Positions 1,505-11,727 of a DNA stretch of 12,295 bases are shown here, one piece after another. Both the position numbers and the translations under genes were made by a program. Positions within the stretch are counted from its first letter, which is position 1. Each line of letters begins with the position of its first letter. The notes under the pieces are model-generated. The model ran no database searches, had not been told where the DNA came from, and was given only the letters and a program-made list of their open reading frames with translations. Source of the stretch: a virus (Duplodnaviria; Heunggongvirae; Uroviricota; Caudoviricetes); the IMG/VR virus record IMGVR_UViG_2529292729_000023; one strand, 5' to 3'.

Positions 1505-1550
1505 CTGATGAATCCCCTAATGATTTTGGTAAAAATCATTAAGTTAAGGT

Positions 1551-1619
1551 GGATACACATCTTGTCATATGATCAAATGGTTTCGCGAAAAATCAATAAT
1601 CAGACAACAAGATGTGCGA
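1551..1619 (-). ncRNA. IS10 RNA-OUT antisense RNA (pOUT transcript), approximate coordinates
   Basis: Placed from established IS10 biology: about 69 nt, transcribed outward from element bp ~115, overlapping the transposase start (ATG at 1612). Coordinates are mapped from memory of the element, not seen as a distinct signal. Confidence 0.45.
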
Positions 1620-2820
1620 ACTCGATATTTTACACGACTCTCTTTACCAATTCTGCCCCGAATTACACTTAAAACGACTCAACAGCTTAACGTTGGCTTG
1701 CCACGCATTACTTGACTGTAAAACTCTCACTCTTACCGAACTTGGCCGTAACCTGCCAACCAAAGCGAGAACAAAACATAACATCAAACGAATCGACCGA
1801 TTGTTAGGTAATCGTCACCTCCACAAAGAGCGACTCGCTGTATACCGTTGGCATGCTAGCTTTATCTGTTCGGGCAATACGATGCCCATTGTACTTGTTG
1901 ACTGGTCTGATATTCGTGAGCAAAAACGACTTATGGTATTGCGAGCTTCAGTCGCACTACACGGTCGTTCTGTTACTCTTTATGAGAAAGCGTTCCCGCT
2001 TTCAGAGCAATGTTCAAAGAAAGCTCATGACCAATTTCTAGCCGACCTTGCGAGCATTCTACCGAGTAACACCACACCGCTCATTGTCAGTGATGCTGGC
2101 TTTAAAGTGCCATGGTATAAATCCGTTGAGAAGCTGGGTTGGTACTGGTTAAGTCGAGTAAGAGGAAAAGTACAATATGCAGACCTAGGAGCGGAAAACT
2201 GGAAACCTATCAGCAACTTACATGATATGTCATCTAGTCACTCAAAGACTTTAGGCTATAAGAGGCTGACTAAAAGCAATCCAATCTCATGCCAAATTCT
2301 ATTGTATAAATCTCGCTCTAAAGGCCGAAAAAATCAGCGCTCGACACGGACTCATTGTCACCACCCGTCACCTAAAATCTACTCAGCGTCGGCAAAGGAG
2401 CCATGGGTTCTAGCAACTAACTTACCTGTTGAAATTCGAACACCCAAACAACTTGTTAATATCTATTCGAAGCGAATGCAGATTGAAGAAACCTTCCGAG
2501 ACTTGAAAAGTCCTGCCTACGGACTAGGCCTACGCCATAGCCGAACGAGCAGCTCAGAGCGTTTTGATATCATGCTGCTAATCGCCCTGATGCTTCAACT
2601 AACATGTTGGCTTGCGGGCGTTCATGCTCAGAAACAAGGTTGGGACAAGCACTTCCAGGCTAACACAGTCAGAAATCGAAACGTACTCTCAACAGTTCGC
2701 TTAGGCATGGAAGTTTTGCGGCATTCTGGCTACACAATAACAAGGGAAGACTTACTCGTGGCTGCAACCCTACTAGCTCAAAATTTATTCACACATGGTT
2801 ACGCTTTGGGGAAATTATGA
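1612..2820 (+). CDS. tnpA: IS10 transposase (402 aa)
   Basis: Track ORF 1612..2820; product MCELDILHDSLYQFCPELHLKRLNSLTLACHALLDCKTLTLTELGRNLP... matches the IS10-Right transposase as I recall it, full length. Confidence 0.95.
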   Translation: MCELDILHDSLYQFCPELHLKRLNSLTLACHALLDCKTLTLTELGRNLPTKARTKHNIKRIDRLLGNRHLHKERLAVYRWHASFICSGNTMPIVLVDWSDIREQKRLMVLRASVALHGRSVTLYEKAFPLSEQCSKKAHDQFLADLASILPSNTTPLIVSDAGFKVPWYKSVEKLGWYWLSRVRGKVQYADLGAENWKPISNLHDMSSSHSKTLGYKRLTKSNPISCQILLYKSRSKGRKNQRSTRTHCHHPSPKIYSASAKEPWVLATNLPVEIRTPKQLVNIYSKRMQIEETFRDLKSPAYGLGLRHSRTSSSERFDIMLLIALMLQLTCWLAGVHAQKQGWDKHFQANTVRNRNVLSTVRLGMEVLRHSGYTITREDLLVAATLLAQNLFTHGYALGKL

Positions 2821-2833
2821 GGGGATCTCTCAG

Positions 2834-2842
2834 GGCTCAGCA
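2834..2842. repeat. 9-bp target-site duplication GGCTCAGCA (right copy)
   Basis: Second copy of the 9-mer, directly after the IS10 inside end. Confidence 0.9.
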
Positions 2843-3519
2843 GTAACAACCATTACATGAGGGAGATTTCCCTTACGGTTGCGAATAAGATTTAATGCCT
2901 CAGAACGAGCATTCTGGGCCCGGTCGCTTCTTATTGTCCATTTGCAGGAAATACTTGCGTGTAATATTGGTTTCCCACCATTCGAACTCCTGAGAGCTGA
3001 CATGCGGGTAACAGAATCATCCACCAGTAATTCAGGACTGTTGATAACTTGATCACATTCAGGTTCTCTTTCAACAATAATATCTGGTGAAATCGTATAA
3101 TCACTCCCCAGTGCAGCAGCTAGCTGAGGATTACTTTTTGCAGCACTATCCAATGCTATAAGATGGGCATATTGTTCATATTTAGCTATCTCTAATCTGT
3201 TTCTACCAGAAACCTGATGTACATTCCATTTTCCAGGGCGTAAGTGGCTGAGTTTAAAAAAGGTTTTTTCTATAAACTCTGCGCAGATACTCTCAAACTG
3301 ATTACCAGATGTTTGCCCTGCAACACGTTCACCAATCGTTTCAGCCTGCAAGAAGCGAGCAATTTCTCTTGCTATAGCTTTACTGTTTTTGTTACTGCTA
3401 TCTGCGTTACTAACAACTCCGGCAGTATTAATTGTGAGCGTATTCAGTAACAATTGGGCATGAAACTCCTTTCTGGCTTCAGCAAAACCAACTATGCTGT
3501 CAACCAAATCTCCATTCAT
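2834..3519 (-). pseudogene. Type II restriction endonuclease gene, N-terminal fragment (229 codons), truncated by IS10; PD...SxK...E active-site pattern
   Basis: Track ORF 2830..3654 trimmed to ATG 3519 (AAGGAAA 7 nt upstream, 13 nt after the methyltransferase stop). Frame runs ...HVMVVTAEP then hits a stop one codon inside IS10. Contains SPD (D146), SCK (S191/K193) and E207. Reconstructed intact gene would be 292 codons. Confidence 0.8.
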
Positions 3520-3532
3520 TTCTGGATTTCCT

Positions 3533-4657
3533 TCAGGCTGCTTGACTATTCTTACTGATGTTATTCTTATACCGTCCCTGCAAAACTCCATACACATATT
3601 GTGCGATTTTTGCCGCAAATAGCGGTGGAACAGCATTCCCGATCTGCTTTGCAATCTCAGTTTTTGAACCGGTAAAAATGAAATTATCAGGAAAAGACAT
3701 TAATCTCGCTGCCTCACGATGAGTTATTGGCCGATCCTCTTCCGGATGTAAATATCGCCCTTTCTCCGGTTTGAAAAACTCAGTACGAATCGTTACTGAA
3801 GGTCTGTCCCACCACAGACGTCCAAACAAATCGGTCCCTCCAGATTTCTTTTTTAGCCAGCACGCCGGGGTTATATCAGGTCTTTTTTTCTGTAAATCGA
3901 AACGGTTACCTCCTGGTGGAACCGCTTTATATCGCTCCAGAGAAACAGGTGTGGGATTACGCCCAAAATGTAAGTTCAGCGGAGGAAGTTCATTACGAAT
4001 ATCAGTTCCAACAGGAGCAGGTAAGTCACCAATTGCATCACGCGTACAGACCCATTCAGGCAAAGCGACATCCTTATCAGGGGAACGATGCGTTGGTGCT
4101 GGCGGGAACGCCGGAATACTATGCACATCGAAGAGTTCTCGTTTGATACCGATTGCTATCGTTCGTTTTCTTGTCTGAGGTACTCCATAGTCAGCAGTAT
4201 TCAACACCATTGGATTAAGCAGAATAAAGCCCATGGATTTCGCTCTAAACGTAATGTCCGCAAACTCATCGCTTATCAGCAATCCGGGGACATTTTCCAT
4301 GACGAACATACAAGCCCTTGAACGCTCAATGACATCCATATAAGGCTCCCACAATGCTCTTCGGTGATCACCATAACGATTCTTATTCAATAAACTGAAT
4401 CCCTGACACGGGGGGCCACCTATGACCACATCAGCCTCAGGAACAGTATTGCTGGATGCCCACTCCTCAATATTTGCCTGAACTCCATGCAAACCAAAAT
4501 TGGCATTGTAGGTATTTATAGCTGCAGCATTATTATCAATAGCAAGGATACTTTCAAAGTAGTCAGACATCTCTCCATGAAGAAAACCATAAGATAATCC
4601 ACCTGCCCCACAAAAGAGGTCTATCACTCTGAATTTATTTAATTCTTTCATCCGCAT
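3533..4657 (-). CDS. DNA (cytosine-5)-methyltransferase, intact (374 aa)
   Basis: Conserved C5-MTase motifs all present: FCGAGG (I), GGPPCQGFS (IV, catalytic Cys), ENV (VI), QTRKR (VIII), GNAVPP (X). GAGG sits 7 nt upstream of ATG 4657. Confidence 0.9.
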   Translation of the reverse strand: MRMKELNKFRVIDLFCGAGGLSYGFLHGEMSDYFESILAIDNNAAAINTYNANFGLHGVQANIEEWASSNTVPEADVVIGGPPCQGFSLLNKNRYGDHRRALWEPYMDVIERSRACMFVMENVPGLLISDEFADITFRAKSMGFILLNPMVLNTADYGVPQTRKRTIAIGIKRELFDVHSIPAFPPAPTHRSPDKDVALPEWVCTRDAIGDLPAPVGTDIRNELPPLNLHFGRNPTPVSLERYKAVPPGGNRFDLQKKRPDITPACWLKKKSGGTDLFGRLWWDRPSVTIRTEFFKPEKGRYLHPEEDRPITHREAARLMSFPDNFIFTGSKTEIAKQIGNAVPPLFAAKIAQYVYGVLQGRYKNNISKNSQAA

Positions 4658-4815
4658 CCATATGCCTCAGATTAATGTTGAGCGTCTTGCAGGACGCGTA
4701 ATGTTAACTGGGGCTTTTCTCTATCTGCCTTTTGGTGTTCATGCCTGAGACAGATAGCCTCAAGCACCCGCAGCAATTCTACTTAACTCTCCTTTTCCCG
4801 CAAACCGTTTTTACC

Positions 4816-4837
4816 CGATATGGGAATTCCCATATCG
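4816..4837. repeat. perfect 22-bp palindrome CGATATGGGAATTCCCATATCG
   Basis: Read directly: left half CGATATGGGAA, right half is its exact reverse complement. Lies between the 34-aa peptide gene and the methyltransferase gene; no U-tract on either strand. Confidence 0.7.
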
Positions 4838-4845
4838 TAATGAAT

Positions 4846-4950
4846 TCAGTTCCCTAGTCGATCCATCAAAAACACAACCAGGCAGTAAACGCCCACAACA
4901 GCAACAACAGCCAGCGCACCTTCCATTGCCAGTGATATATCATCCGACAT
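4846..4950 (-). CDS. small hydrophobic single-pass membrane peptide (34 aa)
   Basis: ATG 4950 preceded by AAGGAGGG; product MSDDISLAMEGALAVVAVVGVYCLVVFLMDRLGN. Below the ORF-track size cutoff. Confidence 0.4.
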   Translation of the reverse strand: MSDDISLAMEGALAVVAVVGVYCLVVFLMDRLGN

Positions 4951-4991
4951 ATTCCCTCCTTTGGTGTTAATCCCGGCGAACGTTTTTACCC

Positions 4992-5069
4992 TCACCGACA
5001 AATAACATATACTAAAAAAGCGATAGCCATAGCAACGCCTGTAATTGCAAATGCTTCAGGCCAGTTCAT
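4992..5069 (-). CDS. small hydrophobic membrane peptide (25 aa), likely translationally coupled to the DUF551 gene
   Basis: ATG 5069 overlaps the DUF551 stop as ATGA; AGGAGGT lies 6 nt upstream; product MNWPEAFAITGVAMAIAFLVYVICR. Shares a GV...VY.. core with the 34-aa peptide. Confidence 0.4.
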   Translation of the reverse strand: MNWPEAFAITGVAMAIAFLVYVICR

Positions 5070-5701
5070 TGGCGCACCTCCTGCGGCGGTTCCGGTAGTG
5101 GCATCCAGTGAGTTGCCTGCTCAATGCCATTACCCGGCTTAATCGTTGCTTGTCCTCGCCGAAAGGTACTTCCGGTATTGCGTGCGGAGCATATTAGTGG
5201 CTCAACCAGATCACTATCGAAATTCACCGAAATAAGTACGTTCTGATTCTTTTTCGGCATTCGCTCACTACAGCTTATCCAACCATCCGGAATTACCGGA
5301 GAGTTGCCATTTACATCGAAGTTTGGTTCTGCGTCCTGAACTAGGAGGATGTAACCATTCTTGGCTGTATCAAGTTCTAACGCCTCGGTTACGGTACCGA
5401 AATAGCGATTACCTAAATCCGCATCACAAGTGCTTACATCAATGGAAACCTCCATGCCTTCGATTAATTCTGGCAAGTTGTAAGTTTGGCTTACAGGCTC
5501 TGCTTCCAGTGATGCCAGTGCAATTCGTGCCAGCTCACGCACAACTTCAGGGGGCGCGTAACGGTCATTCAGGTCATCCCACAGGCGTAGCATGTTATCG
5601 CTACCAGGGTGAACATCCTCGTTAGTTCCGGCAAGCGCACTAATAACCTCATCGGCTGCTTCAATAATTTTCTGTGCCTGTTCTCTGGTAATAGTGGTCA
5701 T
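5066..5701 (-). CDS. DUF551-domain prophage protein (211 aa)
   Basis: Track ORF; C-terminal DGWISCSERMP...ATHWMPLPEPP is the pattern I associate with DUF551. AAGGA 7 nt upstream of ATG 5701, which overlaps the upstream stop as ATGA. Confidence 0.75.
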   Translation of the reverse strand: MTTITREQAQKIIEAADEVISALAGTNEDVHPGSDNMLRLWDDLNDRYAPPEVVRELARIALASLEAEPVSQTYNLPELIEGMEVSIDVSTCDADLGNRYFGTVTEALELDTAKNGYILLVQDAEPNFDVNGNSPVIPDGWISCSERMPKKNQNVLISVNFDSDLVEPLICSARNTGSTFRRGQATIKPGNGIEQATHWMPLPEPPQEVRQ

Positions 5702-5908: not shown

Positions 5909-6271
5909 TCACTCTCCTTTAGTACGCAAGTGGTTTTTCCAGCGGTTTTGCGCCGCGCTGGGCTTTTTGCAAAAACCACAATCCATCATCCCGTAATGTT
6001 TCATTAACCCCATCCGTCGGTTGCTGAGTCTCACCCACTGCCAGACGCCAGGACCGTTTCTGCGAACTAATAGGATTTTTGCTTTACGGTTTTTCATCGC
6101 TTTGCTCTCCTGCGTTTCTTTGCTGCACGTCTCGCCGCCGCAATACCGGTACGACGTTTCGATACCGGAATGATGCTGCCAGCCATCAGGACATGCGGCA
6201 TAACTGTTAAGGCTGCCCCATGAAACCAGACCAGATAAGGCGATATCAGCATTACTCACTCCAGCAACCAT
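5909..6271 (-). CDS. hypothetical protein (120 aa) with CGGETC and CGFC Cys pairs; start uncertain, may be two smaller genes
   Basis: Frame open over 363 nt, but ATG 6271 has no Shine-Dalgarno. Internal ATG 6097 has AGGAGA upstream and would give a 62-aa product. Another frame gives a 52-aa ORF (6252 to 6094) with GGAG upstream and an ATGA junction at 6097. Confidence 0.4.
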   Translation of the reverse strand: MVAGVSNADIALSGLVSWGSLNSYAACPDGWQHHSGIETSYRYCGGETCSKETQESKAMKNRKAKILLVRRNGPGVWQWVRLSNRRMGLMKHYGMMDCGFCKKPSAAQNRWKNHLRTKGE

Positions 6272-6326
6272 TCTTTGGTTAATTCAGTCATTTTTCATTA
6301 CCGCCCTTTCGGGCGGCCTCCTGACA

Positions 6327-6539
6327 TTAATCGTTGTGATAACTCATAGCTTCATTTGCAGCATCAACTGGATCAACCTCCCTCCAGCAATAATTTGGGT
6401 CGGCTCCTTCAGGCGTCCACGGTTCTAATTCATTTTTTGCCGCATTCTCATCGCCAGTAATTTTAAAAATCTGCTCAGAGAATTTTCTTGCCCACTCGTT
6501 ATATTTTTCCGCATTAATGGCTTTCTGTGTATTTAACAT
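6327..6539 (-). CDS. hypothetical protein (70 aa)
   Basis: Track ORF; GGAGG 7 nt upstream of ATG 6539; acidic product MLNTQKAINAEKYNEWARKF... Confidence 0.6.
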   Translation of the reverse strand: MLNTQKAINAEKYNEWARKFSEQIFKITGDENAAKNELEPWTPEGADPNYCWREVDPVDAANEAMSYHND

Positions 6540-10810: not shown

Positions 10811-11218
10811 ATGAAGCGAATGACCACTCTTGAAATAACCACGTACCGGATAAAACTGGTGCTGGAAAAAACAGGGCTTAAGCAAGCAGAACTAGCCCGC
10901 AGAATAGGTGTTGCCCAACAATCGGTCCAAAAGTGGGTTCATGGCATCACAAGCCCATCAATGGCTAATCTTGATAAACTTTCTGAAGTAACAGGATTCC
11001 CTCCATATTGGTTTATGTTGCCACCAAGTGAGGACGAACAGATTGTGGTACCTGACACAATGAAAATAGGTCCGAAGCAAAGAGAGCTACTTCAGACATT
11101 TGGTGCATTCCCAGAGGAAGAACAGGGACAAATGCTTCAGGAGATGAAAGACAAAAAAGAGTTAATGGAGCGCACAATTGAAAGATGGCTCGCTGCCCGG
11201 AAAGGGCATCGAGCATAA
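10811..11218 (+). CDS. XRE-family HTH repressor (CI-like / PaaR-like), 135 aa, no S24 peptidase domain
   Basis: HTH GLKQAELARRIGVAQQSVQKWVHG; divergent from the Cro-like gene; no Ala-Gly / Ser-Lys autocleavage module in the C-terminal half. Confidence 0.8.
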   Translation: MKRMTTLEITTYRIKLVLEKTGLKQAELARRIGVAQQSVQKWVHGITSPSMANLDKLSEVTGFPPYWFMLPPSEDEQIVVPDTMKIGPKQRELLQTFGAFPEEEQGQMLQEMKDKKELMERTIERWLAARKGHRA

Positions 11219-11247
11219 TGACCACCATACACAGACGGAGGTGTGCC

Positions 11248-11436
11248 ATGAATACGGCCCTTTCACCAATGGTTTCTGAGTTCGAAACCATTGAACAAGA
11301 AAACAGTTACAACGAATGGCTGCGTGCGAAAGTAGCAGCGAGCCTTGCAAATCCGCGCCCAGCAATTCCCCATGACGAGGTTGAGCGCAGAATGGCAGAA
11401 CGCTTTGCTAAAATGCGCAAGGAACGGAGTAAGTAG
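11248..11436 (+). CDS. antitoxin partner of ParE (PaaA-like), 62 aa
   Basis: Track ORF 11185..11436 trimmed to ATG 11248 (GGAGG 6 nt upstream). Stop lies 3 nt before the toxin ATG. Product MNTALSPMVSEFETIEQENSYNEWLRAKVAASLANPRPAIPHDEVERRMAERFAKMRKERSK. Confidence 0.65.
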   Translation: MNTALSPMVSEFETIEQENSYNEWLRAKVAASLANPRPAIPHDEVERRMAERFAKMRKERSK

Positions 11437-11439
11437 TAA

Positions 11440-11727
11440 ATGTTACCCGTGTTATGGCTTGAAAGCGCAGATACCGACCTAGATGATATAACTAGTTATA
11501 TTGCTCGTTTCGACATAGATGCGGCAGAACGCTTATGGCAGCGATTAAGGGGGTGTGTGCTGCCGTTATCCGAACACCCGTATTTATACCCACCAAGCGA
11601 CAGAGTACCTGGCTTGCGTGAGATTGTAGCTCACCCTAACTATATAATTCTTTACCGTGTAGCCACTTTAAGCATTGAGATCGTGAGTGTAGTACACGCC
11701 AGACGCCAATTCCCCAAGCAGAACTAA
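11440..11727 (+). CDS. parE: ParE/RelE-family type II toxin (95 aa)
   Basis: Product MLPVLWLESADTDLDDITSYIARFDIDAAERLWQRLRG...PGLREIVAHPNYIILYRVATLSIEIVSVVHARRQF follows the ParE-family pattern. Confidence 0.8.
   Translation: MLPVLWLESADTDLDDITSYIARFDIDAAERLWQRLRGCVLPLSEHPYLYPPSDRVPGLREIVAHPNYIILYRVATLSIEIVSVVHARRQFPKQN

Follow-up and report, generated by a model that had tools for sequence, protein, structure and literature searches.

We analyzed a 12,295-nucleotide (nt) stretch of Caudoviricetes DNA (IMG/VR record IMGVR_UViG_2529292729_000023; hereafter, the window), which is a lambdoid prophage, focusing on two short open reading frames (ORFs), P1 and P2, that lie one behind the other on the minus strand downstream of a DUF551-domain gene. 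A preliminary description of this sequence had singled out two small ORFs here, and both are present where it put them. P1 (4992..5069, minus strand), delineated from the ORF and the family alignment, is a 25-amino acid (aa) allele of a family of 27-aa single-helix peptides and translates as MNWPEAFAITGVAMAIAFLVYVICR followed by a stop codon (reading from 5069 to 4992). P2 (4846..4950, minus strand), supported by the ORF, the Prokaryotic Genome Annotation Pipeline (PGAP) and family membership, encodes a 34-aa single-helix peptide with an acidic N-terminus that belongs to the subtype we denote P2a and reads MSDDISLAMEGALAVVAVVGVYCLVVFLMDRLGN up to its stop (4950 to 4846).

The translation signals of both ORFs are as strong as the preliminary description had held. 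The Shine-Dalgarno sequence of P1, AGGAGG (5077..5082, minus strand), is located 7 nt before the ATG and within the last codons of the DUF551 gene (5066..5701, minus strand; 211 aa; Pfam PF04448, E 2.3e-20; annotated as a DUF551 protein in the relative L001), the stop codon of which (TGA, 5068-5066) overlaps the P1 start codon (ATG, 5069-5067) as ATGA. This overlap geometry suggests translational coupling of P1 to the DUF551 gene. P2 begins 41 nt after P1 with the arrangement AAGGAGG-GAAT-ATG, that is, with a Shine-Dalgarno sequence (4955..4961, minus strand) 4 nt before its ATG. The hydrophobic, single-pass character that had been noted for both peptides is also borne out, with the best 15-residue Kyte-Doolittle windows reaching 2.5 for P1 and 2.95 for P2.

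The suggestion that the two peptides are paralogues did not survive. The GV...VY core on which it was based is literally present in both, but does not signify relatedness: comparison of the two family alignments with hhalign gave a probability of 3.6% with a single aligned column. Pairwise local alignment of the two peptides yielded a score of 27, which was reached by 79 of 5000 full shuffles, a lenient control given that any two hydrophobic helices outscore shuffled strings. Furthermore, P2 resides in a separate cassette of approximately 175 nt that is missing from loci of the phage 933W type, and a second P2 subtype, P2b (see below), occurs without P1, behind unrelated genes. Judged by these comparisons, P1 and P2 are unrelated.

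To delineate the P1 family, we scanned viral contigs with a degenerate pattern (WPEAF, 16 codons, CRW) and obtained 123 matches, nearly all of them exact 27-codon ORFs ending in ...ICRWG-stop, which comprise 59 distinct coding sequences. The family has a uniform layout, in which about 15 hydrophobic residues separate a conserved MxWPEAF at the N-terminus from a conserved YxICRWG at the C-terminus. The ATGA overlap with an upstream stop codon is found in 119 of the 123 matches, behind at least four unrelated upstream 3' ends, and a purine-rich Shine-Dalgarno sequence (GGAGG or GAAGG) is kept at the same spacing in the other upstream contexts. An alignment of 933W, an E. coli prophage and a P1-like plasmid likewise shows the same P1 ORF following different upstream genes.

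For the 16 codons not constrained by the search pattern, we counted single-base changes along a minimum-spanning tree, as opposed to a full phylogenetic model, and obtained 56 synonymous (S) and 48 non-synonymous (N) changes (omega ~0.34, P=7e-8). The changes numbered 38, 31 and 76 at codon positions 1, 2 and 3, respectively, and the non-synonymous ones were mostly exchanges among I, V, L, A and M, whereas the same nucleotides read in shifted frames gave omega values of 1.4-2.1. This pattern of substitutions identifies P1 as a genuine protein-coding gene under purifying selection.

Searches with tblastn detected P1 in 94 phage records, including lambdoid Shiga-toxin (Stx) phages, the P1-like phage-plasmids SJ46 and 813R1, and the virulent Vequintavirinae Av-05 and 24-2-1; it is annotated almost nowhere. 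Phage Av-05 carries P1, without annotation, as an internal cistron: an AATGA junction links it to an EaA-like gene on one side, and the next gene follows within a few bases on the other. In a collection with one genome per species, the P1 pattern returned mostly chance matches, and the true matches were confined to E. coli, Shigella and some short, contamination-like contigs; this result applies to copies that fit the pattern. What lies downstream of P1 varies as well: the hok promoter about 40 nt away in 40 loci, the P2a cassette and then hok in 23 loci, and hairpin terminators or unrelated genes elsewhere. P1 therefore closes its transcription unit in many, but not all, loci.

These contexts bear on the idea that P1 is not a functional membrane peptide but a regulatory leader, an arrest peptide or a translated spacer controlling termination or the stability of the operon 3' end. 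The conserved residues of P1 are found at both ends (MxWPEAF and YxICRWG-stop), and in some arrest peptides the conserved residues are clustered at the ends; moreover, hairpin terminators or the hok promoter very often come directly after P1. Against this, many conservative replacements have left the middle segment hydrophobic, as a membrane helix predicts, the downstream contexts are unrelated or on the opposite strand, leaving no common gene to regulate, and in Av-05 P1 is followed at once by another gene. We therefore regard a leader or spacer role as highly improbable.

The copy in the window has the features of the family (MNWPEAF, ...YVICR and the ATGA junction) and differs from it only at codon 26, where TGG is changed to TGA, removing the conserved terminal Trp-Gly (two residues). 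Among 47 related loci, codon 26 is TGG in 44, and the TGA allele is found in 3. As a separate observation, damaged copies of P1 occur in Shigella phage POCJ13 (L007, about 1222-1305), where codon 3 is changed from TGG to TAG, and in two viral contigs (L225), where a 1-nt deletion removes the start codon. These few damaged copies indicate that P1 can be lost.

P2 is defined by the core ALA..AV...YCL..(V/F)LMDRL(G/S)(N/D)-stop, to which P2 of the window conforms; here, too, it is followed by a hok promoter and a remnant of the hok leader. In RefSeq, PGAP calls P2 as the hypothetical protein WP_001278454.1 or WP_001278450.1, and the window peptide is identical to the representative of a 90%-identity protein cluster found on about 1000 contigs. 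A pattern scan uncovered the second subtype, P2b, a 29-aa peptide ((M)LVLKCALAIAAVMAIYCLAVVLMDRLSD) with a GTG start codon five bases after AGGAGG, which shows about 50% identity to P2a and the common core ALA..AV...YCL...LMDRL; it was called by PGAP once, as WP_000960667, and is otherwise nearly always unannotated. A survey of 5426 complete E. coli genomes found P2a-type DNA in 673 (at least 80% of a 261-nt query covered) and the P2b module in 1629 (at least 80% of a 341-nt query covered). No P2 was detected in deposited phage records by tblastn, with which a DNA search agrees; among the collections searched, those with P2a were E. coli genomes and IMG/VR viral contigs. Neither were distant relatives of P2 found: a phmmer search of 1.84 billion representative proteins returned only near-identical sequences and mis-called extensions. 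P1 and P2 both appear to be restricted to phages of Escherichia and Shigella.

Outside the search pattern, the same tree-based counting gave S=9 and N=5 for P2a (omega 0.16, P=0.001) and S=16 and N=16 for P2b (omega 0.32, P=0.0015), with conservative replacements (I/V, D/E, A/V, H/R), whereas shifted frames gave omega values of 0.8-1.3. The preliminary description had proposed that its case would fall if the ORFs were not conserved in related prophages, with synonymous and non-synonymous changes equally frequent. The opposite was found: both ORFs are intact in many related loci, and an excess of synonymous changes is observed in their own frames only (omega ~0.34 for P1 and 0.16-0.32 for P2 against 0.8-2.1 in shifted frames). 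By this measure, P2 is a genuine protein-coding gene as well. Two other readings of the P2 region were discarded, namely, a 51-aa version of P2 with a TTG start (4846..5001), which has no Shine-Dalgarno sequence and overlaps P1, and an overlapping 25-aa ORF at 4866..4943, for which the shifted frames show no selection.

The translation of P2 has already been recorded. In a ribosome profiling study of E. coli O157:H7 Sakai (Hücker et al. 2017, PMC5597208), XECs145 is listed as a translated intergenic ORF with a predicted inner membrane location; in lysogeny broth (LB), it showed an RNA value of 79.1 reads per kilobase per million (RPKM), a ribosome RPKM of 346.1, a ribosome coverage value of 4.35 and a coverage of 0.99 (PMC5597208 Tables S2, S10). 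The stop codon of XECs145 is that of ECs_5710, which is P2a in the Sakai prophage Sp6 and differs from P2 of the window by one V/I exchange; the order of the Sp6 locus is a DUF551-type gene, P1 (27 aa) joined to it by ATGA, P2a, the hok leader, and mok/hok. Thus, P2 is translated in a growing lysogen according to published data (PMC5597208). The Sakai report assigned no function to XECs145/ECs_5710 and described neither the link to hok nor the P2b subtype. Apart from this table entry, a full-text search for the P1 and P2 peptide strings found no paper in the library covered, and neither ORF is mentioned in the paper on hokW/sokW (PMC8621323), in the nuclear magnetic resonance (NMR) study of Ea22 or in a survey of type I toxins (PMC2887945). 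P2 is, then, already on record as a translated hypothetical protein, and P1 is widespread and has effectively been missed by annotation.

We also considered that one or both ORFs might be non-coding, with the conservation coming from DNA or RNA elements such as the region upstream of the hok promoter, recombination junctions or hairpins. The region does contain a promoter, direct repeats and a perfect palindrome, and P1 is rarely annotated. Nevertheless, only the proposed frames show a concentration of substitutions at third codon positions, the length of 27 codons is invariant across the 59 distinct P1 sequences, and ribosome footprints have been published for P2, which together leave this explanation with very little probability.

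The cassette in which P2a resides (~175 nt) consists of the P2 ribosome binding site, P2 and a 22-nt palindrome placed between two copies of an 11-nt direct repeat, GGGTAAAAACG. By alignment, copy 1 (4981..4991, minus strand) forms the left edge of the cassette, and copy 2 (4806..4816, minus strand; sequence and alignment) the right edge. In 933W-type loci, which have no P2a, a single copy of the repeat is present, and P1 ends as ...TGGGG(A/G)TAAAAACGGTTTGCGGG, running directly into the hok promoter. The repeat pair has the look of a duplication that arose with the insertion of the cassette. The perfect palindrome, CGATATGGGAATTCCCATATCG (4816..4837), directly follows the P2 stop codon, contains a central EcoRI site, has no U-tract on either strand and forms a hairpin in the predicted fold; hok loci from which P2a has been lost still carry it as a remnant. 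A role in stabilizing an RNA 3' end or in binding a protein is conceivable.

No separate promoter is evident for P2a. The P2b module, as a side observation, consists of about 230 nt of conserved upstream sequence and the 29-aa ORF with its GTG start (6150-6490, minus strand, in L131; about 3500-3810 in L406 and L407). An invariant CATATT is found in it 17 nt after TTGAAT and about 35 nt upstream of the start codon, and TTGAAT-17-CATATT is probably a promoter belonging to P2b. RNAalifold detected no consensus structure in the P2b leader.

The position of P2 is closely tied to hok. The hok leader starts 40 nt after the stop codon in 61 of 71 copies of P2b, and the hok promoter follows P2a in every copy examined with sufficient flanking sequence, so that P2 usually ends 25-60 nt before the hok/sok promoter in prophages. 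Sampling in the reverse direction, by the hok leader only, gave 76 loci, with an intact P2 in about 17 (~22%), P1 in about 23 and truncated P2 remnants in about 11; the remnants consist of the last six P2b codons or of the P2a palindrome. In 933W and Sp5, where hokW/sokW was experimentally shown to be a toxin-antitoxin pair (PMC8621323), P1 is located upstream of it and P2 is not found, which implies that P2 is not required for hok/sok function. In a different set of hok loci (viral contig L328), the place before the hok promoter is taken by an unrelated ORF for a membrane protein of about 59 aa (MKNALQFLFVAFWLFVSCMP...), and small membrane-protein genes seem to accumulate on the left side of hok cassettes.

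In the window itself, hok is gone. A putative promoter of the former hok gene, TTGCGG-16 nt-TAGAAT (4776..4803, minus strand), was read from the sequence; its assignment as the hok promoter appears plausible, given an equivalent TTGGCG-17-TAGAAT site found by a promoter scan in L131 and its position directly upstream of the match to the Rfam sok model. This match (4588..4769) is the only one to that model and is downstream of P2. It includes a 110-nt remnant of the hok mRNA leader (4660..4769, minus strand; Rfam RF01794, 70.8 bits compared to 115 in an intact relative). Homology to L001 stops at 4660, exactly at the position of the mok start, and mok, hok and the sok promoter are replaced by a methyltransferase and restriction-enzyme cassette, a replacement shared by 60 complete E. 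coli genomes. Hence, P1 and P2 persist here without Hok.

Could P2 be a functional third component of hok/sok, a membrane partner that tunes Hok insertion and killing or Hok-assisted phage release? Apart from the tight linkage of both subtypes, the truncated remnants still seen on the left side of other hok loci make P2 appear to be an old part of the module; P2 is of the inner-membrane type, like Hok; and hokW/sokW has been reported to affect the release of phage Sp5 (PMC8621323). Yet most leader-sampled hok loci lack an intact P2, the functional hokW/sokW of 933W and Sp5 does without it, a few copies of P2b have no hok, and the window together with the 60 genomes keeps P2 after hok has been replaced. 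Linkage within a mosaic module is explanation enough, and we consider a Hok-partner role rather improbable. The same holds, with similarly low expectation, for a combined proposal in which P2 is an overlooked third hok/sok component and P1 a widespread membrane cistron acting with the lysis-lysogeny modulators ea22, eaA and DUF551.

The adjacency to hok also raises the question of whether P2, P1 or both are type I toxins themselves, held down by an unrecognized antisense RNA and backing up the hok/sok module. Both peptides are short, hydrophobic and single-helix, with polar or bulky C-termini (YVICR(WG) and LMDRLGN), which are the search criteria of the type I toxin survey (PMC2887945), and a sigma-70-like site on the plus strand, TTGCCA-16-CATATT (4926..4953), would give an RNA that spans P1 and the ribosome binding site of P2. 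The sense RNA has a moderate degree of structure (z = -2.7), with the start codon inside a small hairpin. However, the number of promoter-like sites is that expected from shuffling (2 versus 2.0), no terminator follows the antisense site, and the site is not conserved in P2b, the start region of which differs. P2a has a net charge of -3, as opposed to the cationic ends typical of such toxins, P1 and P2 are not tandem duplicates, and neither peptide has a Pfam Hok_Gef match or an Rfam match (nothing in Rfam covers 4846..5069). Type I toxins are normally translationally silent, translation being repressed in normal growth, whereas P2 is among the better translated novel ORFs of the growing Sakai lysogen (ribosome RPKM 346, coverage value 4.35, with the caveat that the reads may be multi-mapped). 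With strong translation in healthy cells, an overall negative charge, and neither a conserved antisense promoter nor a terminator, P2 is unlikely to be a classic type I toxin, and the toxin interpretation as a whole, for either peptide, also appears unlikely.

P1 and P2 were also compared with established systems. Hok/Gef proteins (hokW/sokW of 933W and Sp5; hokD) are likewise small peptides with one helix in the inner membrane; their genes occupy the accessory region of the same prophages and, in relatives, directly follow P1 or P2. They show no similarity to P1 or P2, and a Pfam scan at E<=1 returned no match to Hok_Gef (PF01848). At the sequence level, neither a mok-like leader ORF, nor an Rfam-matched long folded mRNA, nor an antisense RNA was detected for P1 or P2, in contrast to the hok/sok arrangement. 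Hok peptides are about 50 aa long with a periplasmic tail. P2 is well translated in lysogens. In the tandem type I loci ZorO/OrzO, Ibs/Sib and Ldr/Rdl, two short hydrophobic ORFs lie side by side, a pattern that has been used for discovery (PMC2887945). The copies in those loci are clear duplicates with duplicated flanks and antisense RNAs, unlike P1 and P2, which are unrelated ORFs, with P2 having come as a separate cassette flanked by the 11-nt repeat.

Among toxicity, superinfection exclusion and lysis, the candidate roles named in the preliminary description, lysis fits the gene order poorly. The window carries, in order, a PaaA2/ParE pair, a helix-turn-helix (HTH) regulator, early regulators of the YdaS and YdaT types, replication genes, DUF1627, DUF977, small genes, DUF551, P1 and P2. 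In L001, which is 99.8% identical, P2 is followed by hokD, two hypothetical genes, DUF968 and the antiterminator. P1 and P2 are thus placed in the accessory region between the replication genes and DUF968/RusA/Q, upstream of Q, and the gene-order check did not place them downstream of Q, where the phage lysis cassette is located. Given this position outside the lysis cassette, neither is likely to be a lysis protein.

Taken together, we favor as the probable interpretation that P1 and P2 are two unrelated, genuine genes for small peptides embedded in the inner membrane, P1 as a coupled cistron and P2 as an accessory gene expressed in the lysogen. P1 would be made by ribosomes that restart after translating the upstream gene, as the ATGA junction and the Shine-Dalgarno sequence inside that gene suggest, and would be produced with the delayed-early transcripts at induction or infection. 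It would be a cistron of the ea22/eaA/DUF551 gene cluster that travels with the 3' ends of such accessory genes. By the positive-inside rule, P1 is expected to insert with the acidic N-terminal motif outside and the Arg-containing C-terminus inside. P2 would be an accessory, or "moron", gene expressed from the prophage through its own ribosome binding site, and both peptides, once in the membrane, may bind or modulate other membrane components.

Several observations weigh against this interpretation, in whole or in part. P1 of the window, being without the conserved Trp-Gly, may be partly impaired. XECs145 was defined as a 54-aa ORF that begins farther upstream at a non-canonical start codon and shares 22 nt with the end of P1 (PMC5597208), the 34-aa form being favored by the Shine-Dalgarno sequence and by PGAP, and Sakai carries several near-identical copies of P2a, the source of the possible multi-mapping of footprint reads. 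Recombination could have raised the numbers of events in the S and N counts obtained from the minimum-spanning trees. Neither peptide has a match above noise in curated families (Pfam, NCBIfam, PHROGs, PADLOC). Finally, the low share of leader-sampled hok loci with an intact P2 and the P2b copies without hok both count here, and the linkage of P2 to hok may reflect nothing beyond common membership of one mosaic module.

AcrZ, MgrB, MgtS, CydX and KdpF are E. coli single-helix inner-membrane proteins of 25-50 aa, often encoded by short operon cistrons, that bind larger membrane proteins. Regulators of the AcrZ/MgrB type serve as our working model for P1 and P2, which differ from them in being phage-borne and have no sequence relationship to them. 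Small membrane proteins are routinely missed by annotation, and P1, which is conserved in at least 94 phage genomes of three phage types, is a case in point. Both genes reside in accessory regions of Shiga-toxin and related prophages, where genes influence lysogeny, induction and host killing, and between them they occur in a large share of E. coli genomes; they thus offer two concrete candidates for work on small proteins in prophages of enterohemorrhagic E. coli (EHEC). The linkage of P2 to hok, in addition, corrects the picture of what prophage hok/sok cassettes contain. Should P1 and P2 prove to be ordinary accessory peptides of mild effect, the gain would lie mainly in better annotation.

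The cassette that replaced hok in the window starts with a gene for a C5 cytosine methyltransferase (3533..4657, minus strand), fused to the hok leader from the mok start. This gene may now be transcribed from the hok promoter, possibly with a Sok target in its leader. The adjacent endonuclease of the NgoMIV family (2830-3519, minus strand) covers profile positions 1-212 of 275 and is cut short by a copy of IS10 (1550-2829; transposase, 1612..2820; RNA-OUT, 1550..1619). The same endonuclease is intact in the relative L408 (292 aa). With its endonuclease cut by IS10, the methyltransferase of the window is an orphan. Elsewhere in the window, an HTH regulator, a PaaA2 antitoxin and a ParE toxin are encoded consecutively on the plus strand at 10811-11727 (Pfam PF21217, E 3e-19; PF05016, E 8e-16), a row that presumably resembles the three-gene paaR-paaA-parE modules of O157 prophages.

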